A DNA stretch of 64,000 nt from Alphaproteobacteria bacterium (GCA_017629245.1 JAGBXO010000009.1:38256-102255), one strand, 5' to 3'. Positions 29,710 to 61,891 are shown, numbered from the stretch's first letter. Numbers and translations are program-made. Notes: a model not told the origin generated them from the sequence alone.

Positions 29710-29775
29710 ATTAATATTATTTGAAATAATGTGTTTTTTATGATAAAATTATTTAAAAGGATAAAGGGGTTTTAT

Positions 29776-30144
29776 ATGAAAAAACTGATTAAAAAATTAA
29801 ATTTTGCAATTATTGGCATCATGGCATCTGCGCCTGCGATGGCGGCAGGAAATTCTGGGATGAATGATGGACTTTGTAAGCTGGCAGAGCAGTTTGGGTC
29901 TATTTTTAGTATTTTGCGTACATTGGCATTTATTGGTGCTGGTGTAACGATTGCTGGATGGGCCTGGGGGTATATTAGTGCGGGGAAGATAGACGCGATT
30001 AAAGAAGTTAAGGAAAAAGGGATTGCTATGTTAGTTGGCTTTGTCTTGTTGTTTGGTATCGGTACATTGTTGAGTGTGTTCATGAGCATGGCTGCCCCTG
30101 GAGGTTCCCTGGACTGTGATTTAACTACGTTCTTTGGTGGCTAA
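29776..30144 (+). CDS. TrbC/VirB2-like small membrane protein (putative type IV secretion pilin)
   Basis: Signal peptide ...ASAPAMAA. The mature part of about 95 aa has two hydrophobic helices separated by a charged loop (SAGKIDAIKEVKEKG). The call rests on architecture only. Confidence 0.4.
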   Translation: MKKLIKKLNFAIIGIMASAPAMAAGNSGMNDGLCKLAEQFGSIFSILRTLAFIGAGVTIAGWAWGYISAGKIDAIKEVKEKGIAMLVGFVLLFGIGTLLSVFMSMAAPGGSLDCDLTTFFGG

Positions 30145-31228: not shown

Positions 31229-31288
31229 CTTTATTTTTGCATTGTTTTATGATATAATTTCTAAAGAATACTTTAAAGGGATTTGAGA

Positions 31289-32221
31289 ATGAATAAATTA
31301 ATTTCAATAGTTGTTTTGTCGGCGGTTGCATTTTCTGCGGGGGCTGCACCATATGGTGGACCAGCGGCTGGGCGTGGACGCAATTCTATGTCTGGACAGA
31401 TGATGCCAGCACCACAGCAAAATATGCAATATCAAGCAAATCAAGAACGTTCAGGTGTTGCATCAAAAAATCAAATTTCTGCAACGGCAACTTTGGCACC
31501 GGATGCAGCGGTTGTACAGAAATCTAGTACCAAGGTTGATAATAATGTTAATGATAATATCAATGCAGATCTGGCGGTAAATCCAGAAGAAATGATTTCT
31601 GCGCAGAAAAAAGATATGCGCGAAAAGGAAAAAGGTGCATGTGTCTCTAATAATATCGGGGTTGGGAATACCTTTGTTTGGGCGTCGCGTTACAGTAATA
31701 TAAATAATTATTCAACAATGGTTGAAGATATTGAAAACCCAGAAAATAATACTTGCTTTGTTAAGGTTGAATTAAAATCTAATGACTCAAAGATTGGTGT
31801 TTCGGATGTGCCAAGTAAGTATTTTGAATGGGGGCAGAATATCGCATGTGGTTCATGGGCGGACTATGATATGTTGAAAAAACGTATATTGGATGCTAAA
31901 AAAACTGCACGTACATGGGCAACAGTTGGTGGTGCGGTTGGTGGTGCAGCCGTTGGTGTTGGTGCGATGGAATTGTTTGGTAATAAGATGATTGGTGGTT
32001 CTGTCCAAGGACAAAAAGCATTGGAAGGCGATCAATTGTTGCGTTCACAGTTGGTAGTGCTGAAAAAAGATAATGAAGCTGATTATAAAAAATTCATTAC
32101 TAATTTAAAGGTGCTGAAAACAGAATGTGCAAAGGATTATGTAGTTGAAGCCAAAGAAAAAGATGAAGAATTAAAGACTATGTGTGATGAATTTAAGGGG
32201 CTGTTTGATTTGGCTGCTTAA
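31289..32221 (+). CDS. Secreted hypothetical protein with a Gly-zipper hydrophobic segment
   Basis: Signal peptide MNKLISIVVLSAVAFSAGA, a Q/N/M-rich N region, scattered Cys residues, and the TWATVGGAVGGAAVGVGAMELFG segment. Confidence 0.55.
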   Translation: MNKLISIVVLSAVAFSAGAAPYGGPAAGRGRNSMSGQMMPAPQQNMQYQANQERSGVASKNQISATATLAPDAAVVQKSSTKVDNNVNDNINADLAVNPEEMISAQKKDMREKEKGACVSNNIGVGNTFVWASRYSNINNYSTMVEDIENPENNTCFVKVELKSNDSKIGVSDVPSKYFEWGQNIACGSWADYDMLKKRILDAKKTARTWATVGGAVGGAAVGVGAMELFGNKMIGGSVQGQKALEGDQLLRSQLVVLKKDNEADYKKFITNLKVLKTECAKDYVVEAKEKDEELKTMCDEFKGLFDLAA

Positions 32222-45012: not shown

Positions 45013-47025
45013 ATGAAATTGCTGACGTCTTTTTTATTGTTGGTTTTGTGCGCGATGCCGGGCGTCGCGGGTGCGAATGTTGCAACAACTGCGGGCAGTA
45101 ATTTGACTGCCTGGAATGGGGACAGTGGTGCAACAAATAATAATAATTGGAATCAAATAATGAACAGTCGTACCCAGGCAACGGGTATGGTTGGGCAAAA
45201 GCCTAAGGCGGATTTTGGTAATTGTAATTCTTTGATTTTGCGTTGTGCGCAACCAAAGTGTGCGGGATGTACAACGATGGATATTGCGCGAACAATTGTT
45301 GAGGGGTGCGTTAACAGTAATGACACATGTAAAAAGCATGGCAACGATTTAGTGGATTATATATCTGCACAAATTGTGGCCGATGCAAATGCCAAGGTAC
45401 AGCAACAGCAGTTAGCAGCGCAAAATGCGGCAGCCCAGGCGGCGGCGGCACAAAACAGTGCCCAAATGCAGCAGATGCAACAACAAATGCAGCAGATGCA
45501 GTATGAAATGCAACAGCAAAATGCACAACAGATGCAGCAAATGCAGGCGGCATTAGAAGAACAAAAGGCATTGGCGGCCCAGGCTCAGGCTGAAGCGGTG
45601 GCGGCTGCAACAGCCCAGGCTGAAGCGGCGGCAGCAGCATCGCAGAGTTTGTCAAATGTTAGTGATGCCCAGGCCGAAGCGATTGAGAAGGGTGTTTCTG
45701 CAGATGTTTTGATGCGCAATCAAATTTCAGGTCAGATTTTGACTAAAATTGAAAATGCTGAGGTTGCATTAAAAACATTGAATGCAACAATGCAGGATAT
45801 CTTTACATACGCAGGCTGTGATACGCGTGGAAATAGCTGTTCGGGGCCAAAACGTGTGAAGATTTTTAAACAAAAGGCGATGGGATTTTTTGATCCGTAT
45901 GATGCCATCGTAGACGAGGCGTACGAAGGCCTGGAAATGGCGTTGGCGGTTGGCGCGGATGTATCGGATGTTATTATGATGTTAAGTGGTGCGTGCAACC
46001 AGTGGGGCAAATTTATGTGTACCACAGATGCGTCAGGTGGAAAACACCAAGAAGGTCATTATACCGAGGACACATGTAAAAATGGTCGTTCCGTCAAGGG
46101 TGCGATATATGTAAAGAAAGACGGTGATAAAATTGCGGTTGGTGCGGTCAAAGGTGGAATGGAATGTACACCCGGTATGGTTGTTCCACCCCAAGATGAT
46201 TCGCGTTGTACATTGACTGAATTGATTGGTGGAACGGGAACCGACCGAGACGAAGTTTTACGTGAATGGATTAATGAAGCCGATGATGGAGATAAATTGA
46301 TTCGTGTTGGGTGTGCAACATCGGCGTTGGAATCTATTGCAATATTTGGTCGTCGCAACAGTCGTAATGGCGCAACATTGGATTTAGATACTTTGGAACG
46401 CATTATTGCCCAGGATGCACCAGAATTTTCGATTAATAATCGGTATATGAAGCAGGGAACAGATATCAATGAACGGTTAAAGTATTGCGCAATTAATGAA
46501 AAAAGTTATCCGCGATTGTTGACGGCGGTCAAGACAAAAAAACTGCCTAAGACGATTTGTACCACGACCAAGGCATTGGAACGCGAATATGCAACCAATG
46601 GTTCGATTAGTTATTCTGTTGATTGGGCCGAAGTTGGTTTGTCGGAATATGTGCCAGGGATTGAGGCCAAAGAGCATTGTAAGGCATATGTGACAGATAT
46701 TGAAACGGGGTGCAGTGTTGAATGGGCAGAGACTGAAGAACGTTGTCGTGTTTATGGTGACCGCTGTGGGTTTGATGTGATAGATGGAAAGGTTAAAAAG
46801 AAGGCAGATACTGAGGCGAATAAAAATAATGTTGTTGTTGATAACAGTATCAAGAGTGCATGTGTGGGCAGCGGTGGTAGTTGGGTTGTAAGTACAAATG
46901 AAGCCTATTGTTTGTGTCCGAAAGAAGGTTATGAGAATTATATGGGGAGAGATGGAAAATGCGTGAAGAAGAAAGACGATGTGTTGAGTGGATGGGAGTC
47001 TTTTCAACAGATTATTGCCTTTTAA
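45013..47025 (+). CDS. Secreted cysteine-rich protein with a Q/M/A-rich coiled-coil tract and an EGF-like C-terminal module
   Basis: Signal peptide MKLLTSFLLLVLCAMPGVAGA. C-x6-C-x4-C (CNSLILRCAQPKC). QQMQQQMQQMQ tract. C-terminal CLCPKEGYENYMGRDGKCVKKKD, similar to the end of the 35030 gene product. Confidence 0.65.
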   Translation: MKLLTSFLLLVLCAMPGVAGANVATTAGSNLTAWNGDSGATNNNNWNQIMNSRTQATGMVGQKPKADFGNCNSLILRCAQPKCAGCTTMDIARTIVEGCVNSNDTCKKHGNDLVDYISAQIVADANAKVQQQQLAAQNAAAQAAAAQNSAQMQQMQQQMQQMQYEMQQQNAQQMQQMQAALEEQKALAAQAQAEAVAAATAQAEAAAAASQSLSNVSDAQAEAIEKGVSADVLMRNQISGQILTKIENAEVALKTLNATMQDIFTYAGCDTRGNSCSGPKRVKIFKQKAMGFFDPYDAIVDEAYEGLEMALAVGADVSDVIMMLSGACNQWGKFMCTTDASGGKHQEGHYTEDTCKNGRSVKGAIYVKKDGDKIAVGAVKGGMECTPGMVVPPQDDSRCTLTELIGGTGTDRDEVLREWINEADDGDKLIRVGCATSALESIAIFGRRNSRNGATLDLDTLERIIAQDAPEFSINNRYMKQGTDINERLKYCAINEKSYPRLLTAVKTKKLPKTICTTTKALEREYATNGSISYSVDWAEVGLSEYVPGIEAKEHCKAYVTDIETGCSVEWAETEERCRVYGDRCGFDVIDGKVKKKADTEANKNNVVVDNSIKSACVGSGGSWVVSTNEAYCLCPKEGYENYMGRDGKCVKKKDDVLSGWESFQQIIAF

Positions 47026-47044
47026 ATCCTCAGAGTGATTGATT

Positions 47045-47833
47045 ATGAAAAAGTGGAAAAATATTTTTATTAGTTTTTCGGTTTTGGCATTGCTGGTTAT
47101 GCCGGTGTTTGCCGCGGAAAATGGTTGTGATAACGATGATAATGATATGATTGTGGCGGAATTGGCACTGTGTTCAACGCATGCATATAATATCGGAAAT
47201 ACAAAAAATCCGTCTGGCGCGGACAAAGGGCTGATGCGTGATGTTATTGCGATGAAGACAACGGTTATTACACAACAGATGTATAAGCAATATGAACAAA
47301 TGGAATCTATGTTGCGCAGATTGAAAACGCAACTGGAAAAGGCGATTTTAACCACTTCGTTAGAGGCCAAGGGTGCATCATCTGGGTCAAGTGGCGGTTC
47401 GTCGTCTTCTTCATCAGGGGGCAGTTATAAGTCAAATGATAGAAATGTTCATATGGCAGGTGTTCAGAATTGTTTGAATTTCTATCAGGACGAGCAGATT
47501 TTGAGGTGTTATCAGGATAATTTGAATGCGATTGTTAATGTTTCTGGGAATGGCAGTGAACCTTCAACGGAATTGAAAAAACAGTTGGTTCAGGATTATT
47601 GTTCCTTGGATAAGATGAAAATAGGTAATTCGGCGGAGGGGTCGTGTATTGATAAAGCCGGAAAGACGGAGGGGGGCGAGACATATGGGGGCCTGTGTTT
47701 GGGAAATGTAAAGCCAAACAGGTTGAATAAGCGGGATTTTCAGAAATGGATTGATGGTATGCGTTCGTGTTTACAAAATAAATATCGTGCCTTTAATAAT
47801 CAAGAACGGCAGTATCAGGATAACAGGCGATAA
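47045..47833 (+). CDS. Secreted Cys-containing protein, co-transcribed with the preceding gene
   Basis: Signal peptide MKKWKNIFISFSVLALLVMPVFAA. Ser/Gly tract. 8 Cys. Starts about 20 nt after the upstream stop, and the terminator lies only after this gene. Confidence 0.6.
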   Translation: MKKWKNIFISFSVLALLVMPVFAAENGCDNDDNDMIVAELALCSTHAYNIGNTKNPSGADKGLMRDVIAMKTTVITQQMYKQYEQMESMLRRLKTQLEKAILTTSLEAKGASSGSSGGSSSSSSGGSYKSNDRNVHMAGVQNCLNFYQDEQILRCYQDNLNAIVNVSGNGSEPSTELKKQLVQDYCSLDKMKIGNSAEGSCIDKAGKTEGGETYGGLCLGNVKPNRLNKRDFQKWIDGMRSCLQNKYRAFNNQERQYQDNRR

Positions 47834-50972: not shown

Positions 50973-51653
50973 ATGAAAAAAATAGTATCTTTTGCAGTGT
51001 TGGCAATGTTATCTGTACCGGCGTTTTCTGCGCCACAGTATTCTTCGGCAAAGCCAGTTAATAGTGTGCCGTCACATTGGTTAAATGGTGCGTGGTATGG
51101 TGTTGTTCGTGGTGAAATGTCACTGCTTAGCTGGAAGAATAAGTATTCGTCTGATGATTTAGCTTTAGATGGTAAGTCTGAAAGATTTTCTTTTGAGCCT
51201 GTGTTCGGTGGCTCGTTGGCCGTTGGGCATGTGGCGGATGCAAATTGGCGTGGCGAGGTTGAAGGTGGTTTAATTGGCCAATTTACAGATAGTGGTTATG
51301 GGGCTGATTTTAAGTTAACGATTCCATATCTGTCTGTTAATATGATGTATGATTTTGCAAACAATGCTTATGTTGGTGGTGGGTTGGGAATCGCAATCCC
51401 AAAGGTTGATTTAAGTTGGTTTACATTTGAAGCGGATAAGCGTACTGTTTCGCCAAAGTTTGATTTGATGGCAGGTTATTCGCATAAATTAACAGAAAGT
51501 GTGAGTTTGGATTTTCGTTATAGGCTGTCATTTTTGTTTGGTCCAGATGTAAAAGCGGAAGATGTTGCGTTTTCCGGTGGATATTGGCTGAAAACAGATG
51601 TGGATATGATTATAAATAATTCATTTTCTGTTGGGGTGAGATACGATTTCTAA
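50973..51653 (+). CDS. Small outer-membrane beta-barrel protein (Omp25/OmpW/opacity-type)
   Basis: Signal peptide MKKIVSFAVLAMLSVPAFSA. Alternating-pattern strands. Terminal ...VGVRYDF. Confidence 0.55.
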   Translation: MKKIVSFAVLAMLSVPAFSAPQYSSAKPVNSVPSHWLNGAWYGVVRGEMSLLSWKNKYSSDDLALDGKSERFSFEPVFGGSLAVGHVADANWRGEVEGGLIGQFTDSGYGADFKLTIPYLSVNMMYDFANNAYVGGGLGIAIPKVDLSWFTFEADKRTVSPKFDLMAGYSHKLTESVSLDFRYRLSFLFGPDVKAEDVAFSGGYWLKTDVDMIINNSFSVGVRYDF

Positions 51654-51681: not shown

Positions 51682-51711
51682 TTGACCCCGATTCGCGGAT
51701 TGTGATAAAAT
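51682..51711 (+). promoter_or_regulatory. Promoter of the fibre-gene array (TTGACC - 18 nt - TGaTAAAAT)
   Basis: Hexamers read directly. The spacer contains GATTCG, as it does in the promoters at 58335 and 60083. Confidence 0.5.
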
Positions 51712-51735: not shown

Positions 51736-52641
51736 ATGAGAAATAAACTGAAATTATCAACGCTGTCAATTGTTTGTGTGTTGTGTGCATCTGTGGCGAT
51801 GCCGTCTTTTGGTGCGTCTTCGGTGCGTGCGCTGGGTGGGGCAGGGACGTACACCAGTGCGTCTGGTGCTGCGGCGGCCAAGTCGGATGGCGGTGCAATT
51901 AATTCTGTGCGTGCGGGGGCAATGCGCGTGAATAATGTTGCAGGTGCAAATACGGGGGTGACTCGCTCGGGATCGACGCGTGCAGCGTCAACACCACGTT
52001 TGTCGATTGGTAAATATTTATCAGGTTCAAGTGCGATTAGTGGCGGATCATCGATTTCTGGGGCGAATAAACCAGGTGCGGGTAATTCGGGTAACGATTT
52101 GCGCGAACGTGTAGAGGAGTTAGAGAGTTTTGTTGGTTTTTCTGCGAATGGGGAAAGTGTATCTGAGCAGTTGGATGCGATTAAGTTGGATGTTGATGCG
52201 TTGGCGGCGGATTTGTCACAGATAACAGGCGGTTCAACAACGGTTGAATATGCAGATGGTGTTCTGACTGTTGTGCAAGGCGAAGATGTTATGGTTTATG
52301 ATTTGGCAACTGACTTTGCGGGTATGACAGAAATTGATGCGTTGCAGGCGGCCTTGGATGGGTTTCAGGATAAATATTATACCAAGGAAGAAACGGATGC
52401 TTTGTTGGGTGATTATGCCAAGAAAGATGATGTTGCGCCTATTGTAGAAGAGACAGTTAATTTGGTTGTTGAGGAAACTGTTAACGAGGCTTTGTTAGAT
52501 TATGAAATTCCAGATGATTCTGTTGGTGTTGGTAAGTTGGATTTTGGTTCTGCTGCTGAAACTGTAGGCGAGAATGGCTTCTTGATGTTACAGAAAAATG
52601 CAGAAGGTGAAATGGAATGGGTTGACGTTCTGGTTGACTAA
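51736..52641 (+). CDS. Fibre-family paralogue 1: secreted protein with a basic R/S/A/G-rich N region, acidic coiled-coil and shared C-terminal tip
   Basis: Signal peptide ...VAMPSFGA. The C-terminus IPDDSVGVGKLDFGS...ENGFLMLQKNAEGEMEWVDVLVD aligns with the ends of paralogues 2-7. Confidence 0.6.
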   Translation: MRNKLKLSTLSIVCVLCASVAMPSFGASSVRALGGAGTYTSASGAAAAKSDGGAINSVRAGAMRVNNVAGANTGVTRSGSTRAASTPRLSIGKYLSGSSAISGGSSISGANKPGAGNSGNDLRERVEELESFVGFSANGESVSEQLDAIKLDVDALAADLSQITGGSTTVEYADGVLTVVQGEDVMVYDLATDFAGMTEIDALQAALDGFQDKYYTKEETDALLGDYAKKDDVAPIVEETVNLVVEETVNEALLDYEIPDDSVGVGKLDFGSAAETVGENGFLMLQKNAEGEMEWVDVLVD

Positions 52642-52665
52642 CTTGTTGCTAAAAGGAAGGAAGGA

Positions 52666-54972
52666 ATGAGAATAAATAATATTGTGTTTTCTGGTGTTAT
52701 GGCAACGATTTTGATGTCGGTTGCTGGTGTGGCCGGTGCAGCGACTGTTAATTTGGCCAGTAAGAACTATGTTGATGATGCGTTGGCGCAGAAACAAAAT
52801 GTATTGACTGCGGGTGAGGGGATTGAGATTTTTGATAATGTTGTTAAGTTAAAGCATGATATGCCGGATTTTAATAATTTTGCGAAGCATAGTGATTTGT
52901 CTGCTTTGGAAAAGGCTTTGAAGGCAGAGATTATGGCAAAGCATGCGTCTGGTGATTATGCGACAGCGGCGCAATTGCAGGAATTGAAAAATACAGTAGA
53001 GGCTTTGCAAACAGGTGGTGCGGACAAGGCTGCGATTGAAAGTTTGCAGGCGTCGGTTGCGACGATTAGTGCGGATTATGCGAAGAAAAGCGAATTGAAT
53101 GCGACTGAACGGGATTTGCGCAATGCGATTAGTACAGTTGATGCAGCGGTCAAAGCGATTGATTTGAGTCAGTATGCAACGGTTGATGATGTTGATGCGA
53201 AGTTGTTGCTGAAGGCAAATGCAAGTGCGTTAAATACATTAAAGACAACATTGGAAGCAGCGATTGCGGAAAAGCAGGATAAGGGTGATTATTTGGTGGA
53301 ATCTGATTTGGCGGAATTGCAGAATGCGGTTAATGCATTGGATTCTGGCAAGGCAGATGCAAGCACGGTCACAGCGTTGCAGACAGCGATTAATAATTTG
53401 GGGAATACTTATTCAACAAAGGGTGAATTGAGTGATGTTGAAGCCAGATTACAGAATGCGATTTCGGCAATTCAAATCCCAAGTTTGGATGGTTATGCCA
53501 AGTTGACAGATATTCCATCAACGGCGAATTTAGCGACCAAAGCAGAATTGGCAACCAAGGCAGATGCAAGCGCGTTGAATGATTTGGTGACAGGTGAAGA
53601 ATTGGAAACCTTGCGTACGAATTTAGAGGCGGAAATTGCAAAGAAACAGGCATCAGGCGATTATGCGACGGCAAATGCATTGAAAGCGGTTTCTGATTCG
53701 TTGGCAGAATATGCAAAAACGTCAAATGTTTATACCAAGGCAGAAGTTGATCAGAAAATTGCGGACGCAGCATCGGGTGGGGATATTGACCTGTCGGGTT
53801 ATGCAACAACATCTGCATTGGATGCTTTGAAATTATTGGTTAATGGCAATGCGACCGAGATAACCAATTTGAAAAATGCGGGATATCAGACAAAATCAGA
53901 TGTTCAGGGTGCGATTACAACAGCAGTTGCAGATTTGGCAACCCGTAGTGAACTGGGTGGGTATGTAAAATCCTCTGAATTGGCAGAGGTTGCGACAACG
54001 GGTTCCTATAATAGCTTGTCTGACAAACCGACAATACCTTCAATTGAAGGGTTAGCAACCAGTGCCGAGTTGCAGGCGTTAGAAGATAAAATTGCAGAAA
54101 AGCAAGATGCAGGTAATTATTTAGAAGATGCAGATTTGGCAGAAATTAACGCTGCGATAGCGCAATTGCAGTCTGGTAAGGCGGATGTGGCGACGGTTAC
54201 AGCTTTACAGACAGCGATTAATAATTTGGGTGGTACCTATGCATCTGATTCGGAATTAACCACAGCGATTAATAATGTTGTAGCATTGATCCCGTCTGTG
54301 CCGACAGATGTTTCTGCGTTTACAAATGATGCAGGGTATATTACCAGTGCGGCGTTGGATGGTTATGCGACTAAGTCAGAAATTCCATCAACGGCAAATC
54401 TGGCGACCAAAGCAGATTTGGCAACCAAGGCAGATGCAAGCGCGTTGAATGATTTGGTGACAAGTGAAGAATTGGCAACCCTGCGTACGAATTTAGAGAC
54501 GGAAATTGCAAAGAAACAGGCGGCGGGTGACTATGCGACGGCGACTGCGTTGAAGGCGGTTTCTGATTCGTTGGCAGAATATGCAAAAACATCAAATGTT
54601 TATACCAAGGCAGAAGTTGACGAGAAGATCGCAGGTGCTGCATCAGGTGGAAATGTTGATTTGTCTGGCTATGCAACAACATCTGCATTGGAAGCATTGC
54701 AGGCATTGGTTAATGGCAATGCGACTGAGATAACCAATTTGAAAAATGCGGGTTATCAGACATCAACAGATGTTCAGAATGCAATTACAACAGCGACAGA
54801 GGGGTTTGCAAGTCAGGATGATTTGGCAGGTTATATGGCAACGCCGGCAAATCCGGGGACTGGAAAATATTTGTTGTCTGCAACATGTACCAGTAAAAAG
54901 TGTTCATATTCATGGAAGTTGACCAGTGAAATTGTTGGTGACGGTTCTGATGGTACTGTTGGTGAAATATAA
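52666..54972 (+). CDS. Fibre-family paralogue 2 (768 aa): Ala-rich repetitive tail-fibre-like protein
   Basis: Signal peptide MRINNIVFSGVMATILMSVAGVAGA. Mature N-terminus ATVNLASKNYVDDAL. Internal duplication of about 288 aa. EVATTGSYNSLSDKPTIPS motif. Tip GKYLLSATCTSKKCSYSWKL. Confidence 0.65.
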   Translation: MRINNIVFSGVMATILMSVAGVAGAATVNLASKNYVDDALAQKQNVLTAGEGIEIFDNVVKLKHDMPDFNNFAKHSDLSALEKALKAEIMAKHASGDYATAAQLQELKNTVEALQTGGADKAAIESLQASVATISADYAKKSELNATERDLRNAISTVDAAVKAIDLSQYATVDDVDAKLLLKANASALNTLKTTLEAAIAEKQDKGDYLVESDLAELQNAVNALDSGKADASTVTALQTAINNLGNTYSTKGELSDVEARLQNAISAIQIPSLDGYAKLTDIPSTANLATKAELATKADASALNDLVTGEELETLRTNLEAEIAKKQASGDYATANALKAVSDSLAEYAKTSNVYTKAEVDQKIADAASGGDIDLSGYATTSALDALKLLVNGNATEITNLKNAGYQTKSDVQGAITTAVADLATRSELGGYVKSSELAEVATTGSYNSLSDKPTIPSIEGLATSAELQALEDKIAEKQDAGNYLEDADLAEINAAIAQLQSGKADVATVTALQTAINNLGGTYASDSELTTAINNVVALIPSVPTDVSAFTNDAGYITSAALDGYATKSEIPSTANLATKADLATKADASALNDLVTSEELATLRTNLETEIAKKQAAGDYATATALKAVSDSLAEYAKTSNVYTKAEVDEKIAGAASGGNVDLSGYATTSALEALQALVNGNATEITNLKNAGYQTSTDVQNAITTATEGFASQDDLAGYMATPANPGTGKYLLSATCTSKKCSYSWKLTSEIVGDGSDGTVGEI

Positions 54973-55034
54973 GGTTGTGATTTAAATTAATAGTACAGGT
55001 GGGAATTAATACAAATATTGATAAGAGAAGAAAA

Positions 55035-56183
55035 ATGACAAGGAAAATATCTTTTTTGCTGCCGTTTTGTATTTTTGTTGCATTGTCTAATGTGGCATAT
55101 TCAGCGGAAAATTACGCAAGTGAAGAATATGTTGATGATTTGTTTTTTGAGGTTATAGACTATGTTGATAGCACAACTACGCCTATGAACAGAACCATGA
55201 AAACAAACGATAATCAGCTTTTTGAGAATCAGGTTGTGTTGCGTGATATGTTGAATGCCAGAGATGCTGATGATAATTGGATTCAGTTAGATACAGAAGC
55301 GAAGTTGGCGATTCCGGCGATTAATGAATTGCATTCGGAAATGGCGGGCAAGCAGGATGTGATTACAGCGGAAAATCCGTTGGCGGTGGAAAATATTTCG
55401 GGGTTGTCTGAAGTGGCGACGACGGGTTCATATAATAGTTTGTCGGACAAGCCGGAAATCCCATCGGTGGATGGATTGGCAGAAAAGTCATATGTTGATG
55501 AAGAATTGGCTAAGAAAGTATCGGCAGAAACGATTCAGAATTTGGAACAGAATATAACAAATAATTATCTGACCAAAACTGATGCCCAGAATACATATTT
55601 GACACAAGAAACTGCATCAGAAACATATGTAACAGAACAGCAAGTGACACAACAGATAACAAATGTTGTTGGTTCGGCGGATTCTGGTTTGTTAAAAGAT
55701 GTTGCAGATAACAAAGCGGCAATTGCGACTAAGGCAGATAAGTCTGCATTGGAAACAGCGGTTGCGGATTTAGATGCCAAGATTGACCAGGCAGTTATTG
55801 ATTCTTCAAATATTGATTTGTCCAGTTATGCAAAAACCGAAGATGTTGCCAAGACATATGCAACAATTGGAACTGTTGATGCGGTTGAAGGTCGGGTCGA
55901 TACAATAGAGGCAGCTGGCTATCAAACTGCAGGTGATGTTCAAGGGGCGATTACAACTGCAACCAAAGATTTAGCGACAAAGTCTGAGTTGGCAGGTTAT
56001 GTGTTGGCCGATTCTTTGGGTGCATTGGCAACTAAGGATTCTGTTTCGACAGATGAAATTCAAGCAAAAGCTGTGACTATGGACAAGATTGCGGGACGTG
56101 AGCCTGTGGCCGGTGAAACATTACTGATGTCTGTTGATGCAGAAGGTAATGTGACATGGTTGTCAGTAGAGATTTTGAAGTAA
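55035..56183 (+). CDS. Fibre-family paralogue 3 (382 aa)
   Basis: Signal peptide MTRKISFLLPFCIFVALSNVAYSA. ASEEYVDDLF. EVATTGSYNSLSDKPEIPS. Tip GETLLMSVDAEGNVTWLSVEILK. The start is ambiguous (GTG at 54999 is possible). Confidence 0.6.
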   Translation: MTRKISFLLPFCIFVALSNVAYSAENYASEEYVDDLFFEVIDYVDSTTTPMNRTMKTNDNQLFENQVVLRDMLNARDADDNWIQLDTEAKLAIPAINELHSEMAGKQDVITAENPLAVENISGLSEVATTGSYNSLSDKPEIPSVDGLAEKSYVDEELAKKVSAETIQNLEQNITNNYLTKTDAQNTYLTQETASETYVTEQQVTQQITNVVGSADSGLLKDVADNKAAIATKADKSALETAVADLDAKIDQAVIDSSNIDLSSYAKTEDVAKTYATIGTVDAVEGRVDTIEAAGYQTAGDVQGAITTATKDLATKSELAGYVLADSLGALATKDSVSTDEIQAKAVTMDKIAGREPVAGETLLMSVDAEGNVTWLSVEILK

Positions 56184-56224
56184 AAAAATAATCGAAATAT
56201 TAAAAAAAGGAAAGGACGGAAAAA

Positions 56225-57208
56225 ATGAAAGTAAAAAATATTATGTTTTCAGGCTTTGCGGCGGCCGTTTTTGCAACGGTATGTGGGGCAGCTGTTGCAG
56301 CAGATGTGTCTTTGATTTCAAAAGATTATGCAGATGCAAAATTGCAGGCAAAATTGACAGAGGGGCAGGGTATTAATATCGCAGAACAGGCAGATGGTAC
56401 AACAACGATTTCTGCGGATGTTGACCTGTCAACATTGGCGACAAAAGAATCTGTAGAGGCATTGGGTAATAAACTTGGTACATTGCAGAATGAACAGGGT
56501 GAAAGTATTACTGTTCAGGCGGCCTTGGCAGGTAAGCAGGATACATTGACAACTGAACAACAGGCGGCAATTGATTCTGGGATTGATTCTGAGGCGGTTG
56601 CCCAAATTACAACCAACAAGAATAATATTTCGGGGTTGACAACACGTATGACCGAAGCTGAATCTGATATTCAGGCGAATACCGAGGCGATTAATACTTT
56701 GAGTGGTGGAAACGGCAGTGAGGGTGTTGCGAGCTTGATGCAGGATGTTAAGGATAATACGGCAGACATCGCAAAATTGAATGCAGATGCGCAAACAGAA
56801 GGTTCGGTTGCAAAGTCTATTGCTGATGCCTTGGCAAATGGCAATTATGTTGATGAAACCGAATTGACACAAAAAGGCTATCAGACGGCAGGTGATGTTG
56901 AGACAGCGATTAACAATTTGAATTTGGGCGGAAATTATCAGGCTAAGTTAGATGATACACAGATGAAGGCGGTTAATTCAGGTGTTGATTCAGATAAGGT
57001 TGCTGCGATTGCTACAAATACCCAGGCAATTGCGGATAATGCTGCAGAAATTGCTAAAAAGGTTTCGGTTGTGACTACGGCGGGCACATATCTGGTGAAT
57101 TTTGATGCAACGGGTGCTGTATCATATGCGCCAATTAAGATTTTGGACAAAGACGGTAATGAAATCACATTGAATGGTGAAAGTGCGGTTAAGCCATCTG
57201 CAAATTAA
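56225..57208 (+). CDS. Fibre-family paralogue 4 (327 aa)
   Basis: Signal peptide MKVKNIMFSGFAAAVFATVCGAAVA. ISKDYADAKL. Shares identical DNA tracts with paralogue 5. Tip GTYLVNFDATGAVSYAPIKIL. Confidence 0.65.
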   Translation: MKVKNIMFSGFAAAVFATVCGAAVAADVSLISKDYADAKLQAKLTEGQGINIAEQADGTTTISADVDLSTLATKESVEALGNKLGTLQNEQGESITVQAALAGKQDTLTTEQQAAIDSGIDSEAVAQITTNKNNISGLTTRMTEAESDIQANTEAINTLSGGNGSEGVASLMQDVKDNTADIAKLNADAQTEGSVAKSIADALANGNYVDETELTQKGYQTAGDVETAINNLNLGGNYQAKLDDTQMKAVNSGVDSDKVAAIATNTQAIADNAAEIAKKVSVVTTAGTYLVNFDATGAVSYAPIKILDKDGNEITLNGESAVKPSAN

Positions 57209-57284
57209 TATAAATAGTGTCACCCCATAATATTTTGGGGTGGCATTTAAAAATAAAAAACGAAAGAAAAGAAAGGAAATAATA

Positions 57285-58253
57285 ATGAAAATTAAAAATG
57301 TTATGTTCAGCGGTGTTATGGCGGCAATTCTGACGATGTCTGTTGGTGCTGCGATGGCAGAAGGGGAAACGGCGGCAATCAGTGTTGCGTCAACAGGTTA
57401 TGTTGAAGCCAAAGTTGGTGCTTTAGAAACAAGTGTTCAGGGCGTTTATCAGACGAAAGCGGATGCTAAAACAGCGGCAGATGAACAGAAGCTAATCGAT
57501 GATAAGCAGACCCAGGACATCAAGTCAAATACAGAAGCGATTAACATGTTGGGCGGTGATTCAGGTGCGGAAGGTGTAGCAACATTGGTAAGTGATGTTA
57601 ATACGAATAAGACTGCGATTGAAAAATTGAATGCAGATGCGCAAACAGAAGGTTCGGTTGCGTATAAAATTGCCCAGGCTGTTTCAGATGAATCATTAAG
57701 TAAGTACACAACAGATGCAGAATTAGAAGGAAAAGGCTATCAGACAGCTGGTGATGTTCAGACAGCGATTAACAATTTGAATTTGGGCGGAAATTATCAG
57801 GCTAAGTTGGATGAAACACAGATGAAGGCAGTTAATTCTGGTGTGGATGCTGATAAAGTGTCTGGGTATGATTCTGTGGTTTCGGCTGTTAACAACGAAA
57901 AAAGTGGTTTGGTTGCTACATATGATATTGCCACTGCAAATAAGGCAGCAATTGAAGCCGAGAATACAGGTCTGGCCGCGGCGCATACTGCAATTGCGAC
58001 ATTAAATGGTGCTGATACCGAAGCGGGGTCTGTTGCATATGCGGTTAAGGGATTGGCAGATGGTGCAGTTGCAACAAATACTGGTGCAATTGCGACATTA
58101 AATGGTGCTGATACCGAAGCAGGGTCTGTTGCACATACTGTAAAGGGTTATGCGGTTCCAAAACCAGGTGCTAATTGTGCACATGCAAAATGTGTTTTGT
58201 CAGTTGATCAGGATGGGGCTCCATACTGGATGGAATTGGCATTATCATTATAA
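57285..58253 (+). CDS. Fibre-family paralogue 5 (322 aa)
   Basis: Signal peptide MKIKNVMFSGVMAAILTMSVGAAMA. ASTGYVEAKV. 32-aa tandem repeat. Tip CAHAKCVLSVDQDGAPYWMEL. Confidence 0.65.
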   Translation: MKIKNVMFSGVMAAILTMSVGAAMAEGETAAISVASTGYVEAKVGALETSVQGVYQTKADAKTAADEQKLIDDKQTQDIKSNTEAINMLGGDSGAEGVATLVSDVNTNKTAIEKLNADAQTEGSVAYKIAQAVSDESLSKYTTDAELEGKGYQTAGDVQTAINNLNLGGNYQAKLDETQMKAVNSGVDADKVSGYDSVVSAVNNEKSGLVATYDIATANKAAIEAENTGLAAAHTAIATLNGADTEAGSVAYAVKGLADGAVATNTGAIATLNGADTEAGSVAHTVKGYAVPKPGANCAHAKCVLSVDQDGAPYWMELALSL

Positions 58254-58272
58254 TCATATTTTGACCAATACG

Positions 58273-58304
58273 CAGGGGCAAAGAAATGCCCCTGTTTTTT
58301 TTTT
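58273..58304 (+). terminator. Rho-independent terminator after paralogue 5
   Basis: CAGGGGCA-AAGAAA-TGCCCCTG followed by T10. Confidence 0.8.
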
Positions 58305-58334
58305 ATAAAAATACGGCAGTGTGTTTTTTTGGTC

Positions 58335-58364
58335 TTTACACGATTCGGGCAAATATGATATAAT
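58335..58364 (+). promoter_or_regulatory. Promoter of paralogue 6 (TTTACA - 18 nt - TGaTATAAT)
   Basis: Read directly. GATTCG in the spacer. Confidence 0.55.
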
Positions 58365-58394
58365 GCACCATACGAAAGAAAGGAAGGGAATATT

Positions 58395-60053
58395 ATGAAA
58401 AAATTAACTGCGGGTATTTTTTCCGTATTGTTGGGGCTGGTGTCTGTGGGTTCTGCAAATGCAGCCGTTGTTTCAACTGAATATTTAGAAGATGTTTTGG
58501 AAACACAATTGGCAAATATGCAGACAACAATGACTGCAACTGGACCGGTAAAGATTGAAAATAATGTTATTTCTGTTGATATGGGTGCTGTGTCTGAAAT
58601 AGGGACAAACCTGGTGACGGCAAAGGATATTTATGCGGCGGTTAATGCAGCGGTTGCAGATCAACAGGTAAAGTCTAATTTGGTTAAGACAGGTGCAGAT
58701 GGATCGGTTGTTGCACCAGCAGTAGGGACGGAAAATGAACACTATCCATCGTATGCGGCAACGGTTAAAATTGCCGAGAATGCGGTTGGTATTTTGACCG
58801 GTGGTGTTTCTGCGTTGGAAGGTGATGTTTCCACATTAAAGACAAATGTTGCAGATATCAAAGAGAATATTGGTAACCTGGGCGAAGGTGTGACGGTTGA
58901 ATCTGCGTTGGGATTAAAGGCTGATAAAACTGCATTAGCGGCAACGGATGAAAAGGTTGCGGCAAATGAATCTGCAATTGCGGCGATTAATAATGCAGAA
59001 ACAGGTGTTCTGAAACAGGCCCAGGGCTATGCAGATACTAAGGTTTCTGAATTGGCAGCAGGTGCGGTTAAAACAAATGCGGATGCAATCGCAGCAGAAA
59101 AATCTGCACGCGAGGCGGCGGATGCACAATTGCAGACAAACATTAATCTAAAGGCAAATGCTGCAGATGTTTATTCCAAGACCGATGCTGATGCAAAGTT
59201 TGAAGCACAAGCGGCTGCAACTGCGAAATTGCAGGCGGCCAAGGATTATGCGGATGCACAGATTAAAACACTGACAGATAGTTTAGGTGGTACTGGTGAA
59301 GATGGTTCTAGTACTGGTTTGACTGGTGTGGTTGCATCCCAGGGGGTTAAGATTTCTGCATTAGAAGACAAGGTTGGTGATAAGTCAGTTGTTGCGCGTA
59401 TAGAGGAATTAGATTTCTCGGATCAGGCGGTTGATAAAGAATTTGTAACAGCGGTATCCCAGGAAAACGGTGTTATTACTGTGTCACGTGCAGCGTTGGC
59501 CGAATCGGATATTCCAACATTGTCAATTGAAAAGGTTGAAGGTTTGCAGGCGGCATTGGATGCAAAACAGGTTAACCTGACCGGCCAGCAAGGTGTAATC
59601 GTTATTGCAGATGGTGTTGTTTCAATCGCAGCTGGTGGTGTTGGAACGGCGCAATTGGCAGATGCGGCCGTAACAGAAGGTAAGATTGCCGATAATGCAG
59701 TAACAGAAGGTAAGATTGCCAATAATGCGGTGACATCGACCAAGATTGCAGATGGCGCAATCACCAAGGGTAAGATTGGTGAAAGTGCGGTTGAGGCAGG
59801 AAATTTGGCAACGGGGGCAGTGCTAGAAGGAAATATTGCCGCCGGTGCCGTGACGGCGGATACAATTGCGAAAAATGCAGTTGGTTCCGATCAATTGGCG
59901 TCGGATGTTAATTCGTTGCTGGCGGGGGCGATTCAGGCACCGTCGGAAACAAATGCTGATGGAACCTTTGTCTTGACGGCCAAGAAAATTACTGTCGATG
60001 GCAAAGTGACGTATTCATATGCGTGGGAAGATATTGCCGGACGCAGTGAATAA
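58395..60053 (+). CDS. Fibre-family paralogue 6 (552 aa) with 11-residue (A/G)xV(T/E)xGKIAxN-type repeats
   Basis: Signal peptide ...VGSANA. VSTEYLEDVL. Repeats AAVTEGKIADNAVTEGKIANNAVTSTKIADGAITKGKIGE. Tip GTFVLTAKKITVDGKVTYSYAWEDI. Confidence 0.65.
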   Translation: MKKLTAGIFSVLLGLVSVGSANAAVVSTEYLEDVLETQLANMQTTMTATGPVKIENNVISVDMGAVSEIGTNLVTAKDIYAAVNAAVADQQVKSNLVKTGADGSVVAPAVGTENEHYPSYAATVKIAENAVGILTGGVSALEGDVSTLKTNVADIKENIGNLGEGVTVESALGLKADKTALAATDEKVAANESAIAAINNAETGVLKQAQGYADTKVSELAAGAVKTNADAIAAEKSAREAADAQLQTNINLKANAADVYSKTDADAKFEAQAAATAKLQAAKDYADAQIKTLTDSLGGTGEDGSSTGLTGVVASQGVKISALEDKVGDKSVVARIEELDFSDQAVDKEFVTAVSQENGVITVSRAALAESDIPTLSIEKVEGLQAALDAKQVNLTGQQGVIVIADGVVSIAAGGVGTAQLADAAVTEGKIADNAVTEGKIANNAVTSTKIADGAITKGKIGESAVEAGNLATGAVLEGNIAAGAVTADTIAKNAVGSDQLASDVNSLLAGAIQAPSETNADGTFVLTAKKITVDGKVTYSYAWEDIAGRSE

Positions 60054-60082
60054 AAAAAATTTTATTTCAGGTGATTTTATTG

Positions 60083-60112
60083 TAGACGGCGATTCGCGTT
60101 TTATGATAAAAT
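60083..60112 (+). promoter_or_regulatory. Promoter of paralogue 7 (weak -35, extended -10 TGaTAAAAT)
   Basis: Read directly. GATTCG lies 10 nt upstream of the -10, as in the promoter at 51682. Confidence 0.45.
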
Positions 60113-60165
60113 ACACCTGAAGAGAAAGAGAACAAAAAACAAAACAAAAAGAAAGGAAGGAAAAC

Positions 60166-61443
60166 ATGAAAAAAATCTTAACAGCATCTTTGGTTGCGAT
60201 GATGGCGGTTACCGCAGCAAACGCGGATATCGCATCGACTGGGTATGTTAATAAAAAATTAACTGGTGATGCGGAAAATAGCACACTGTCTTTTACTGGT
60301 GCAGCTGCAAACCAAACTACTTTGCAGGGGGCCGTTAATGCGATTGCAGACAGCTTGAGCCAAAATTTAGGTGAGGGTGGTAATGTTTCACAACAGATTC
60401 AAGGTGCTATTCAGGGGTTGACTGGTGAAGTCGATGGATCAGGTGTTGTGACATCGATTTCTCAGACAAATGGTAAAGTTACAGCGACTTTGCAAAAGAT
60501 TGGTAATGATCAGGTCGAAGCTATCTCGCAGGAAAAGATTACTGGGTTGACAGATGCTTTGGGGGACAGACAGTTGGTTGATAATATTGTCCCTGAGTTA
60601 AATATTGCGGCAGAAGCTAATAAAGTGGACACTAAGTATCCGTCTGTTAAGGCTGCGTATAAGATCGTTGAAGATGGAACTAAGTCTTTGACAGAAGGTT
60701 TTGGAAATGTGACAGGTACAATTGGTGCTGATTCTACAGAAACTTTTAAAGGACAACTGCAAGAAACTGTTAATCTGAAGAATGCGAATACTGTTGTTCA
60801 GAGTGTAAAAATCCTTGATAAAGCCATTGATGATGTTGATACTGCATTGGCTGAACAAATGGATGCTGATATAGCAGGCTCTTTGGCAGCGCAGATTAAA
60901 GATATGAAGGATACTTCCAAGCAAGGATCTGTTGCAAATACGGTTGCGGGTATTGAAACTGATTTAGGTACAGTGACCTCAGAAAATATGGGTACAACGG
61001 CAAGCAATGTTGCTGATGCGATTAAGGAAGTTGTTGATGAAAAAGCAGACAAGGCGGATACATTGGCGGGTTATGGCATTGGTGATGCGTATACAAAAAC
61101 AGAAACAGAATCTGCAATTACAACCAAAATTGAAGGTTTGGTTGCGGAAGCAGAGGTCGCAGGGACAAATGATGGTTCATATGTAACAGCAGTTGCCCAG
61201 ACAGATGGTAAAATTAAGGTTTCAACTGTTGCTTTTGACACTGCTTTGGATGTTAACAGCACAAATGCTGTTCAGAACAAGGTTGTAGATTCTGCGATTA
61301 AGGGTATTAAAACAAACCTGGGTGGTTTGGATGGTAAAAATATTGCCTCTGTTCCGACTTCATGTGCAGCAGGTGGCAATGGTACATGTTCTTTGGTTAT
61401 GAAGAATGGTGTTGCGACATGGGAAGTTGTTCAGTATGAATAA
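60166..61443 (+). CDS. Fibre-family paralogue 7 (425 aa)
   Basis: Signal peptide MKKILTASLVAMMAVTAANA. DIASTGYVNKKL. Tip SCAAGGNGTCSLVMKNGVATWEVVQYE. Confidence 0.65.
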   Translation: MKKILTASLVAMMAVTAANADIASTGYVNKKLTGDAENSTLSFTGAAANQTTLQGAVNAIADSLSQNLGEGGNVSQQIQGAIQGLTGEVDGSGVVTSISQTNGKVTATLQKIGNDQVEAISQEKITGLTDALGDRQLVDNIVPELNIAAEANKVDTKYPSVKAAYKIVEDGTKSLTEGFGNVTGTIGADSTETFKGQLQETVNLKNANTVVQSVKILDKAIDDVDTALAEQMDADIAGSLAAQIKDMKDTSKQGSVANTVAGIETDLGTVTSENMGTTASNVADAIKEVVDEKADKADTLAGYGIGDAYTKTETESAITTKIEGLVAEAEVAGTNDGSYVTAVAQTDGKIKVSTVAFDTALDVNSTNAVQNKVVDSAIKGIKTNLGGLDGKNIASVPTSCAAGGNGTCSLVMKNGVATWEVVQYE

Positions 61444-61456
61444 ACTTTTGTAAAAT

Positions 61457-61487
61457 AAAAAAACCGGGCGTTTGCCCGGTTTTTTTG
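61457..61487 (+). terminator. Rho-independent terminator after paralogue 7
   Basis: AAAAAAACCGGGC-GTTT-GCCCGGTTTTTTT. Confidence 0.8.
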
Positions 61488-61533
61488 TTTGTGTTTTCTT
61501 TTTGTTTTGTTTGCAGTTTTTATTCAGAAAATT

Positions 61534-61576: not shown

Positions 61577-61891
61577 ATGTTTATGTGGACAGCAGAAAAG
61601 TATTACTATGTTTATATTATGGCCAGTTCCAGGAATGGAACGCTGTATGTTGGGTTTACCAGTAATTTAGCACAACGTGTTTTTGAACATAAAAATCATT
61701 TGTTGCCTGGATTTACCAGCAGGTATAATGTTGATAAATTAGTTTACTTTGAACGATTTACGGATGTAAACCGTGCAATACGTCATGAGAAGCGTTTAAA
61801 AGAATGGCAAAGGAATTGGAAAAAGGATTTGATAGAAAAATTTAACCCACAATGGCGTGATTTGTATGAAGATTTGAATAATTTGTTATAA
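61577..61891 (+). CDS. GIY-YIG nuclease superfamily protein (UPF0213/COG2827-like)
   Basis: YYVYIMASSRNGTLYVGFTSNLAQRVFEHK...YFERF...AIRHEKRLKEW. The start may be at 61577 or 61583. Confidence 0.75.
   Translation: MFMWTAEKYYYVYIMASSRNGTLYVGFTSNLAQRVFEHKNHLLPGFTSRYNVDKLVYFERFTDVNRAIRHEKRLKEWQRNWKKDLIEKFNPQWRDLYEDLNNLL

Follow-up and report, generated by a model that had tools for sequence, protein, structure and literature searches.

A clade-specific, ordered array of seven Sec-exported, putative coiled-coil fibre proteins in Candidatus Enterousia

Results

The array and its surroundings

We examined a window of 64,000 nucleotides (nt) of Alphaproteobacteria bacterium DNA (GCA_017629245.1, JAGBXO010000009.1:38256-102255), taken from a metagenomic scaffold, in which all positions are counted from the first letter of the stretch. 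The source of the window is Candidatus Enterousia, an uncultured gut alphaproteobacterium of the order Rs-D84. In the region 51736-61443, seven open reading frames (ORFs) follow one another on the + strand, with the positions and lengths given by an initial annotation of this DNA (Table 1). The proteins that they encode are best described as a new, uncharacterised and clade-specific fibre family, which is built from a pool of phage and autotransporter modules, carries distinctive ends and is encoded by an ordered multi-gene locus. Each protein comprises a signal peptide, a constrained mature N-terminus, a long shaft and a short C-terminal hairpin, and each belongs to its own orthologue class (A to G, for paralogues 1 to 7).

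The gaps between the seven ORFs measure 24-141 nt, and AAGGAAGGA-type ribosome-binding sites precede most of the genes. For paralogue 3, orthologues and a gene caller placed the likely start at 55035 (MTRK...) or 55056; for paralogue 5, orthologues and an independent gene caller agreed on the MKIKNVMFSG start. The GC content of the array equals that of its surroundings. Its flanks are housekeeping genes (ftsEX, plsC, rbfA and lepA), and phage structural, lysis and packaging genes are absent on both sides. The initial annotation had placed a gene for a small beta-barrel outer-membrane protein (OMP) immediately upstream, and a PF13505 match bears this out.

A small GIY-YIG nuclease gene lies directly 3' of the terminator that ends the array, and occupies the same position in 6 of 36 related loci (L005, L007, L015, L021 and L023; weakly elsewhere). 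The initial annotation had reported no integrase nearby. A phage-type integrase (Phage_int_M, Arm-DNA-bind_3) does occur just outside the window, at 19947-20957 of L001, which corresponds to about 66171-67181. It stands approximately 4.7 kb beyond the last fibre gene, after lepA, with the conserved rbfA-lepA block between it and the array. Two mechanisms of programmed variation were considered at the locus. Invertible promoters or a shufflon were rejected, because no convincing inverted repeats were found there, and a diversity-generating retroelement is argued against by the annotated window, in which no reverse transcriptase was seen.

Signal peptides and mature N-termini

Read directly, all seven sequences begin with a K/R n-region, a hydrophobic core and an AxA-type cleavage site. 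Three of the signal peptides are near-identical (MRINNIVFSG, MKVKNIMFSG and MKIKNVMFSG), in agreement with the initial annotation, which had also proposed a common motif close to the cleavage site in six of the seven proteins. To quantify this N-motif we used the strict pattern [AIVL]S[KTEQRSV]x[YFW][VAL][DENTSGQ]. It occurred 7 times in the seven proteins, while composition-preserving shuffles gave an expectation of 0.23 and a maximum of 2, and the proposal was thereby confirmed. Six of the seven copies lie 3-10 residues past the predicted cleavage site. In related genomes the motif was present in 86 of 101 array ORFs, at a median position of 26.

Paralogue 1 carries no N-motif and, as had been described, has a basic R/S/A/G region in its place. 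Its class has a signature of its own: the mature N-terminus A/SSVRxLGGxGTY (here and below, a slash marks the predicted cleavage site) is invariant in 29 homologues. The invariant residues of class A are A27, V30, R31, L33, G34, G35, G37, T38, R88, L89, S90, G92, Y94 and L95. This N-domain continues with xRxGSxRV and then TPRLSIGKYLxG, and is as constrained as the N-terminus of the N-motif classes. In an AlphaFold2 (AF2) model of paralogue 1, the per-residue confidence (pLDDT) was below 50 over nearly all of residues 1-120, so that the model treats the N-domain as disordered. All classes have a (nearly) invariant Tyr near the start of the mature protein, which is residue 12 of class A and falls between residues 7 and 14 in classes B-G.

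In class G, about 85% of the residues of the signal peptide and N-terminus are identical throughout the order, a level comparable to that of FtsE. Past the signal peptide, strong conservation spans only about 8-10 residues, for which AF2 predicts helix or coil. Conservation of the mature N-terminus to this degree is unusual for secreted proteins. At synonymous third positions, identity over the class G signal peptide and N-terminus was 0.63, compared with 0.56 for ftsE. Since this value is only slightly above that of ftsE, the constraint acts mainly on the peptide and not on the DNA; homogenisation at the DNA level (gene conversion) was therefore rejected as the main cause of signal-peptide conservation.

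No lipobox ([LVI][ASTVI][GAS]C) and no C-terminal hydrophobic helix were found when the seven proteins were read directly. An N-terminal Ala-Asp is the site of peptidoglycan linkage in alphaproteobacterial OMPs. Linkage of this kind was rejected here, because the dipeptide is found in paralogue 4 only.

Shafts and the search for related families

The shafts are helical as judged from a 3.5-residue hydrophobic periodicity (z = 2.0-6.5) with no beta periodicity, and the AF2 models of paralogues 7 and 1 contain long helices that are broken by beta-hairpins. Periodicity and models indicate that the proteins are coiled-coil fibres, comparable to fibritin or to autotransporter stalks, and not tail fibres of beta structure. 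The heptad-like shaft of the initial annotation is thus retained, and its likeness to phage tail fibres is narrowed to short modules, weakly so for the SGSYN motif.

Several modules recur within the array. Paralogues 2 and 3 both contain TGSYNSLSDKP(T/E)IPS, and the module GYQTxxDVQxAI occurs five times in the shafts of the window. In paralogue 6 the repeat unit is 10 residues long, not the 11 previously given, and its 8 copies are spaced by 30 nt. Paralogues 4 and 5 have 145 nt in common at 88% identity. Paralogue 2 contains two internal repeats, with copies of 300 nt (88% identity) and 153 nt (72%) that lie 870 and 828 nt apart; the similarity of these copies points to a recent duplication that roughly doubled the length of the shaft.

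None of the seven proteins matched a Pfam or NCBIfam family, even at E <= 1, and at that threshold Pfam detected no YadA_anchor (PF03895), head, neck, Hep_Hag/HIM or Peptidase_S74 domain. When the sequences of paralogues 2, 6 and 7 were searched against the PDB, the only outcome was a marginal match between the paralogue 6 repeats and 9eg4_H. When the AF2 monomer of paralogue 7 was compared with PDB folds, there was no match at E <= 0.001 and the best TM-scores were <= 0.17, a result that the extended, low-pTM model makes meaningless. These searches support the earlier statement that the array belongs to no system that can be named, since no named family was matched in Pfam, NCBIfam or the PDB. 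They likewise support the reported absence of an autotransporter barrel, an LPXTG motif, a lipobox and phage structural genes. An ordinary adhesin family and a prophage remnant had been raised as possible outcomes of such searches, and neither was found.

Matches to phage proteins were short. Paralogue 2 matched phrog_30808, a family of unknown function (E = 3e-13), and residues 404-519 of paralogue 6 matched the tail-fibre families phrog_892 and phrog_28766 (E of about 1e-10), through the repeats only. Phage matches span 16-31% of paralogue 6, and the SGSYN motif had weak matches in 40 phage records. Among 50,697 phage genomes, paralogues 2 and 7 had no match, and a class G profile had no relative in IMG/VR. 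Shaft modules are common to phage-like proteins and to a YadA-anchor protein (P0031, P0034 and P0071). The latter, P0071 from an alphaproteobacterial metagenome-assembled genome (MAG), has the stalk module ATTLAGYGITDAYTKTETDSAI in common with paralogue 7. This sharing implies that the same building blocks circulate among phage fibres, autotransporters and the Enterousia fibre family.

The C-terminal hairpin

A C-terminal element of about 22 amino acids (aa) could be aligned over all seven paralogues and approximately 100 relatives. It contains an invariant Trp, replaced by Tyr in paralogue 4, and a Cys pair in paralogues 2, 5 and 7. AF2 predicts a two-stranded hairpin, with strands at residues 407-413 and 416-422 of paralogue 7 and a hairpin at 282-298 of paralogue 1. 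The conserved tip with three Cys pairs that had been described earlier is therefore present; its placement at the extreme C-terminus fails for paralogues 2 and 4, in which 15-20 further residues follow. The class G pattern is (P)xxC..G..C[SA]L[VT]..G..W[EQ]x[VI]x[Y]. Class G tips often end in Tyr and those of the other classes do not. The hairpin of paralogue 3 is almost identical in L002, L005 and L007.

The initial annotation had called this element a tip. A receptor-binding role is unlikely because the hairpin is the most conserved part of the protein, and it is the shaft that is hypervariable. From this pattern of conservation, a trimerisation or assembly element is more likely than a receptor binder. 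A reading of the hairpin as an OMP beta-signal or part of a barrel was rejected, as the terminal Tyr is confined to class G and two strands per chain are too few.

Conservation and shaft replacement in related genomes

We scanned relatives using one genome per GTDB species, and 36 loci were returned. The MAGs that carry these 36 loci are all labelled as Candidatus Enterousia or as uncultured gut Alphaproteobacteria, and their sources are chicken, sheep, goat, yak, deer, buffalo and human-type cohorts. All homologues of paralogue 7 are metagenomic proteins without a name. In the approximately 25 loci that extend far enough, the array occupies the same site, with the order plsC-DUF218-ftsX-ftsE, small OMP, array, (GIY-YIG) VTT-rbfA. 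The order of the classes is constant as well, A,(B),(C),D,E,F,G,(H), and each class can be recognised by its own signal peptide, N-terminus and hairpin. The number of genes per array ranges from 5 to 8; classes B and C are often missing while the rest are retained. Thus, the array and its terminal motifs are conserved outside the source genome, which answers the check on relatives that the initial annotation had recommended. The idea of an interchangeable arsenal was not upheld, each paralogue being a distinct orthologue class with a fixed position across the order.

The ends and the order are constant, and the shafts are not. Relative to the window, flanking housekeeping proteins are 58-99% identical and the fibres typically 30-55%, often over partial length. 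Locus L007 illustrates the difference between genes at one site: FtsE is 99% identical to that of the window and paralogues 1-4 are 86-94% identical, while paralogue 5 has 45% identity and paralogue 7 has 44% identity over 28% of its length. The contrast between FtsE and paralogues 5 and 7 implies whole-shaft replacement between close strains. In class G, more than 90 proteins have MKKILTASLVAMMAVTAANA/DIASTxYV and the hairpin in common, and their shafts are unrelated or mosaic.

Every one of the 25 loci that cover the upstream side has the small OMP gene directly before class A. The identity of its product across loci is 35-92%, below that of the housekeeping flanks. This faster evolution suggests that the OMP, too, may be exposed at the surface, and its constant position hints that it is possibly tied functionally to class A.

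An eighth class, H, follows class G in many relatives and is absent from the window. Its signal peptide begins with MLKQKFVFAVSL..., and its C-terminus differs from that of the other classes (...G.IPSGS..ST..A.IWV[EQ]).

The array takes up about 1% of the genome. Enterousia and other Rs-D84 bacteria have genomes under 1 Mb and few remaining biosynthetic pathways, most being missing, and they are suspected of living at the expense of partner cells. Enterousia has neither flagella nor respiration, and a partner-dependent lifestyle has been proposed for it (PMC12306168). As possible mediators of cell contact, the literature on Enterousia and Rs-D84 names only "hypothetical membrane-bound proteins", and we found no mention of the fibre array in the literature on Enterousia and Rs-D84.

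A secretin and a TcpQ-like protein in the same window

The initial annotation had stated that no pilin signal or integrase lay nearby. For the locus itself this is correct; elsewhere in the window, at 11.7-17.5 kb, there are genes for a secretin of the PilN/TcpC type known from type IVb pili, a TcpQ-like protein and a pilin-like protein. The secretin matched TIGR02520 with E = 2.8e-70 and 237 bits, under the 288-bit cut-off. It was 91-100% identical in the best 120 of 814 related clusters, and it was paired with TcpQ in both of the two other contigs examined. Several secretin and fibre homologues lie on contigs of equal length, which suggests that these are the same contigs. The pilin-like gene stands 2.6 kb beyond the TcpQ/secretin pair. 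Its matches were to PF07963 N_methyl (E = 0.013, below cut-off) and to a ComGE-like family (E = 0.0045). Type IV pili are not mentioned for Rs-D84 in a published genome survey.

Other features of the window

The window also encodes four signal-peptide proteins for which no Pfam or NCBIfam family was found; three of them are Cys-rich. The N-region of the 745-aa protein is R/S/V-rich (AVSRV..TVSRVATRV..SAVSRVF) and reminiscent of the class A fibre N-domain. In L030 and L031, homologues of the 670-aa and 264-aa pair come right behind the fibre array. A 137-aa ORF, preceded by a small lipoprotein gene, combines a signal peptide with two hydrophobic helices and so resembles VirB2/TrbC in topology; its reading as a VirB2-like pilin of a type IV secretion system was rejected, as there was no Pfam support. 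Genes for dnaN, dnaA and a gyrB/parE-type protein are present and do not form a dnaA-dnaN-gyrB cluster. GC skew is positive over all 64 kb with no switch, and hence no signal of a replication origin is visible.

Table 1. Positions of the array genes, their control elements and other features of the window, with class H genes of related loci
Feature	Position (nt)	Strand	Length (aa)	Description
Paralogue 1, class A	51736-52641	+	301	Signal peptide to about aa 27, then SSVRALGGAGTY; basic, putatively disordered R/S/A/G region ending PRLSIGKYL; predicted helical shaft; hairpin at nt 52573-52635
Paralogue 2, class B	52666-54972	+	768	Signal peptide MRINNIVFSG...; N-motif ASKNYVD at nt 52756-52776; internally duplicated shaft with TGSYNSLSDKPTIPS; Cys-pair hairpin at nt 54862-54924, then 15-aa tail
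Paralogue 3, class C	55035-56183	+	394 (ORF)	ORF opens at 54999; likely start MTRK at 55035; N-motif ASEEYVD at nt 55116-55136; TGSYNSLSDKPEIPS; hairpin GETLLMSVDAEGNVTWLSVEI at nt 56112-56174
Paralogue 4, class D	56225-57208	+	327	Signal peptide MKVKNIMFSGFAAA; N-motif ISKDYAD at nt 56315-56335; hairpin GTYLVNFDATGAVSYAPIKIL at nt 57083-57145, then 20-aa tail
Paralogue 5, class E	57285-58253	+	337 (ORF)	ORF opens at 57240; likely start MKIKNVMFSG at 57285; N-motif ASTGYVE at nt 57387-57407; Cys-pair hairpin at nt 58176-58244
Paralogue 6, class F	58395-60053	+	552	Signal peptide MKKLTAGIFSVLLGLVS; N-motif VSTEYLE at nt 58470-58490; eight 10-aa AVTxGKIAxx repeats; hairpin at nt 59961-60035
Paralogue 7, class G	60166-61443	+	425	Signal peptide plus N-terminus MKKILTASLVAMMAVTAANA/DIASTGYV; mosaic shaft with two predicted internal beta-hairpins; Cys-pair hairpin CAAGGNGTCSLVMKNGVATWEVV at nt 61363-61431
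Small outer-membrane beta-barrel protein	50973-51653	+	226	PF13505 OMP_b-brl, E = 1.1e-7
Promoter-like site before paralogue 1	51682-51711	+		10/12 consensus positions with extended TG; consensus match only
Terminator-like hairpin after paralogue 5	58272-58295	+		9-pair stem with T-run
Best promoter-like site of the region	58335-58364	+		11/12 positions with TG; 3' of the terminator-like hairpin after paralogue 5
Strong intrinsic terminator ending the array	61453-61490	+		17-pair stem, then T-run
GIY-YIG nuclease gene	61577-61891	+	104	
TcpQ-like protein	11723-12700	+		PF10671 TcpQ, E = 5.9e-18
PilN/TcpC-type type IVb-pilus secretin	12740-14368	+		PF00263 Secretin
Type IV pilin-like gene	16986-17450	+	154	MNQESG/RSMIEMLGVLAIMGV, Glu at +5; weak assignment
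dnaN	21401-22519			
dnaA	33595-34962			
gyrB/parE-type gene	37930-39909			
Small lipoprotein gene	29323-29679			Precedes the 137-aa ORF
137-aa ORF	29731-30144	+	137	
Orphan signal-peptide protein	31283-32221	+		
Orphan signal-peptide protein	35030-37267	+	745	
Orphan signal-peptide protein	45013-47025	+	670	
Orphan signal-peptide protein	47039-47833	+	264	
Class H in related loci	L010 11080-12417; L020 10747-12273; L021 11164-12210; L028 11450-12688; L030 11386-13401; L031 11450-12547; L033 13863-15581; L037 11437-13026			Follows class G

Discussion

Proposed working of the fibres

We propose that the locus is a clade-specific, ordered set of seven Sec-exported coiled-coil fibres, most probably homotrimers, and that these most likely serve Enterousia as surface contact fibres toward a partner cell or host; we put the probability of this reading at about 0.55. 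Herein, we outline how such fibres might be made. The class-specific signal peptide would direct each chain through Sec. The C-terminal hairpin, which is the last part to emerge, would act as the nucleus of trimerisation and registry in a foldon-like role, and the coiled-coil shaft would zip up from it in the periplasm. In three paralogues the hairpin would be stapled by a disulfide, and the Cys pairs would fit oxidative folding in that compartment. A trimerisation nucleus at the C-terminus would delay folding until translocation is complete. The mature N-terminus with its invariant Tyr (h-A-S-x-x-Y-V-D in classes B-G, SSVRxLGGxGTY in class A) would then be the recognition or docking element by which the fibre crosses the outer membrane or is fixed to it. 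Finally, the exposed mosaic shaft would be exchanged by recombination under diversifying selection. The combination of a variable middle and constant ends implies this division of labour, with exposed shafts under diversifying selection and ends for assembly and targeting.

For the step at the outer membrane, the best candidate machinery would be the type IVb-pilus secretin system of the same genome, for which the N-terminal signals of TcpF and CofJ offer a precedent. TcpF and CofJ are Sec-exported and are recognised via their first 5-15 mature residues, among which an aromatic residue is critical (Tyr5; Phe10; motif SxGGAFT); they are bound by a trimeric minor pilin at the pilus tip and carried through the secretin, TcpF as a trimer (PMC9565799). 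The class A N-terminus SLGGAGTY is similar to the CofJ-type SxGGAFT. By analogy, secretin-dependent export or display of the fibres, guided by the N-motif, is a tentative possibility. More specifically, it is conceivable, if doubtful, that a display pathway not yet described operates here, in which a stand-alone type IVb-type secretin would export pre-assembled trimeric coiled-coil fibres, recognised by their N-terminal aromatic motif and held at the surface or a pilus tip; in an alternative form, the seven classes would be joined into one segmented fibre. If this pathway exists, the locus would encode a modular attachment organelle that latches a bacterium with a genome of <1 Mb onto the partner cells it needs.

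Several observations weigh against the proposal or parts of it. The secretin is approximately 37 kb from the array, genes for a pilus ATPase, a platform protein or minor pilins were found neither in the window nor beside the secretin in two other contigs, and the secretin could serve DNA uptake instead, dprA being present in the window; our confidence in the export route is therefore low. The pilin assignment is weak. As regards trimerisation, hmmsearch with the foldon family (Fibritin_C) left the hairpin unaligned, hhalign gave a probability of 0.1, and a PDB profile search with the hairpin matched no foldon, despite the many foldon-tagged chains in the PDB. With these three negative results, foldon homology was rejected and a topological analogy only was kept. 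The AF2 monomer models that depict the shafts are of low confidence (pLDDT of 66 and 50). The seventh copy of the N-motif is internal, at residue 206 of paralogue 3, from which a purely structural role for the motif, for example as a coiled-coil cap, is possible. Lastly, the fixed class order and the class-specific ends would also fit hetero-assembly.

Alternative explanations

Hetero-assembly would be realised if the seven classes were segments of one composite organelle, arranged end to end or in a fixed hierarchy, in which the hairpin of one class docks on the N-terminus of the next and class A is the cell-proximal base. The long tail fibres of phage T4, which are built from gp34-gp37, are the model for such a structure. 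It would accommodate the class order fixed across Rs-D84, the conserved and class-specific termini flanking freely varying shafts, the invariable first place of class A with its distinct, invariant N-domain, and the apparent single transcription unit of paralogues 1-5. We nonetheless consider it unlikely, given that arrays with 5 to 8 genes occur, that arrays often lack B and C yet keep the others, that one type of N-motif serves classes B-G where seven distinct junctions would be expected, and that paralogues 6 and 7 have promoter-like sites and terminators of their own. A different anchorage is implied if the fibres are degenerate or split trimeric autotransporter adhesins (TAAs; type Vc) that lost the YadA anchor and are displayed via the beta-barrel assembly machinery or the adjacent small OMP. 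The coiled-coil shafts interrupted by beta-hairpins do resemble TAA stalks, P0071 and paralogue 7 have a stalk module in common, and an OMP gene always precedes the array. However, no anchor, head or neck domain was detected in the seven proteins; two strands per chain give 6 per trimer, compared with 12 in a TAA barrel; most tips end without the aromatic residue of a beta-signal; and the 226-aa OMP has only a generic small-barrel domain, without POTRA or Omp85 features. This origin is accordingly quite improbable.

Hardly more credit can be given to a location inside the envelope, where the proteins would be structural spacers or tethers between peptidoglycan and the outer membrane. Their Sec signals unaccompanied by a recognisable outer-membrane translocation domain would suit such proteins, the Cys pairs fit periplasmic folding, and the basic N-domain of class A could bind peptidoglycan; but hypervariable shafts, and cassettes that are replaced between strains otherwise almost the same, are a mark of exposed antigens and not of internal scaffolds, proteins of 300-770 aa that are mostly coiled coil would be much too long for the periplasm, and an Ala-Asp N-terminus is seen in one paralogue only. 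By far the least probable explanation, and one that is all but excluded, is that the genes are the remnant of a prophage tail module, a tailocin or the fibre set of a gene-transfer agent. The integrase downstream, the GIY-YIG gene after the array and the short shaft modules that match phage tail-fibre families could be read in this sense. Against it stand the housekeeping flanks (ftsEX, plsC, rbfA, lepA) with no phage genes on either side, the same chromosomal site in about 25 species-level MAGs, the unremarkable GC content, the lack of counterparts of paralogues 2 and 7 in phage genomes and of class G in IMG/VR, and the signal peptides of all seven proteins; to our knowledge, phage fibres have none. 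Contact fibres displayed at the cell surface remain our preferred reading.

Biological significance

Rs-D84 bacteria, including Enterousia, are widespread in human, ruminant, horse and bird guts, and their mode of contact with partners is unknown (PMC12306168). The array is the fastest-evolving feature of its region and is conserved in position and order, and for these reasons it is the first candidate to consider as the contact apparatus and as the source of specificity at the level of strains. Its products define a protein family that has no annotation and counts hundreds of metagenomic members, whose signal peptides and N-termini are unusually constrained.

Comparison with known systems

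Phage tail fibres resemble the Enterousia fibres in two short modules, the SGSYNxLxxKP motif (paralogues 2 and 3) and the 10-aa AVTxGKIAxx repeats (paralogue 6). The fibres differ from them by their signal peptides, the lack of a phage context, the predicted helical shafts and the conserved distal end. Fibritin of phage T4 is a coiled-coil fibre whose C-terminal foldon is a beta-hairpin of some 25 aa, in which a Gly turn and a Trp are conserved. Here, too, a predicted terminal beta-hairpin with a Gly turn and a Trp ends a putative coiled-coil fibre and could nucleate trimer folding; no sequence homology was detected, however, the Enterousia proteins are cellular and Sec-exported, and many of their hairpins have a putative disulfide. 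With the stalks of YadA and BadA (type Vc), the fibres have in common a Sec signal, long Ala/Thr/Asn/Asp-rich coiled coils with short beta elements, and at least one module of the YadA-anchor protein P0071. In contrast to YadA and BadA, they have no anchor, head or neck, and their C-terminus is a two-stranded hairpin rather than a four-stranded barrel segment.

TcpF of V. cholerae and CofJ of enterotoxigenic E. coli are similar in having a Sec signal and an aromatic residue early in the mature protein, a likeness at the level of pattern, and the TcpQ and TcpC/PilN-type secretin pair of the window recalls their setting. Those two proteins are globular and are encoded inside the pilus operon, whereas the seven proteins considered here are fibres encoded far from the secretin.

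The closest known system is the mosaic adhesive trimer (MAT) family of Bdellovibrio bacteriovorus, of which the Enterousia fibres are not members. MAT fibres are chromosomally encoded, signal-peptide-bearing and phage-mosaic, and their surface anchor is unknown; they have a conserved, beta-rich N-domain of about 130 aa, form meandering beta-helical trimers, end in variable C-terminal tips and, in 13 of 21 cases, include an S74 chaperone-protease (PMC10769870). Both families combine signal peptides and a chromosomal set of many paralogues with modules that are common to phage fibres, and Bdellovibrio, too, lives by contact with other cells. Unlike in the MATs, the conserved N-terminal part in Enterousia comprises about 10 residues, the N-domain of class A being predicted as disordered; the shafts are predicted to be alpha-helical and there is no S74 domain; the C-terminus is constant and the middle variable; and the genes stand in one ordered array. 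The Enterousia array is a second independent case, beside the MATs, of Sec-exported fibres without a known anchor.

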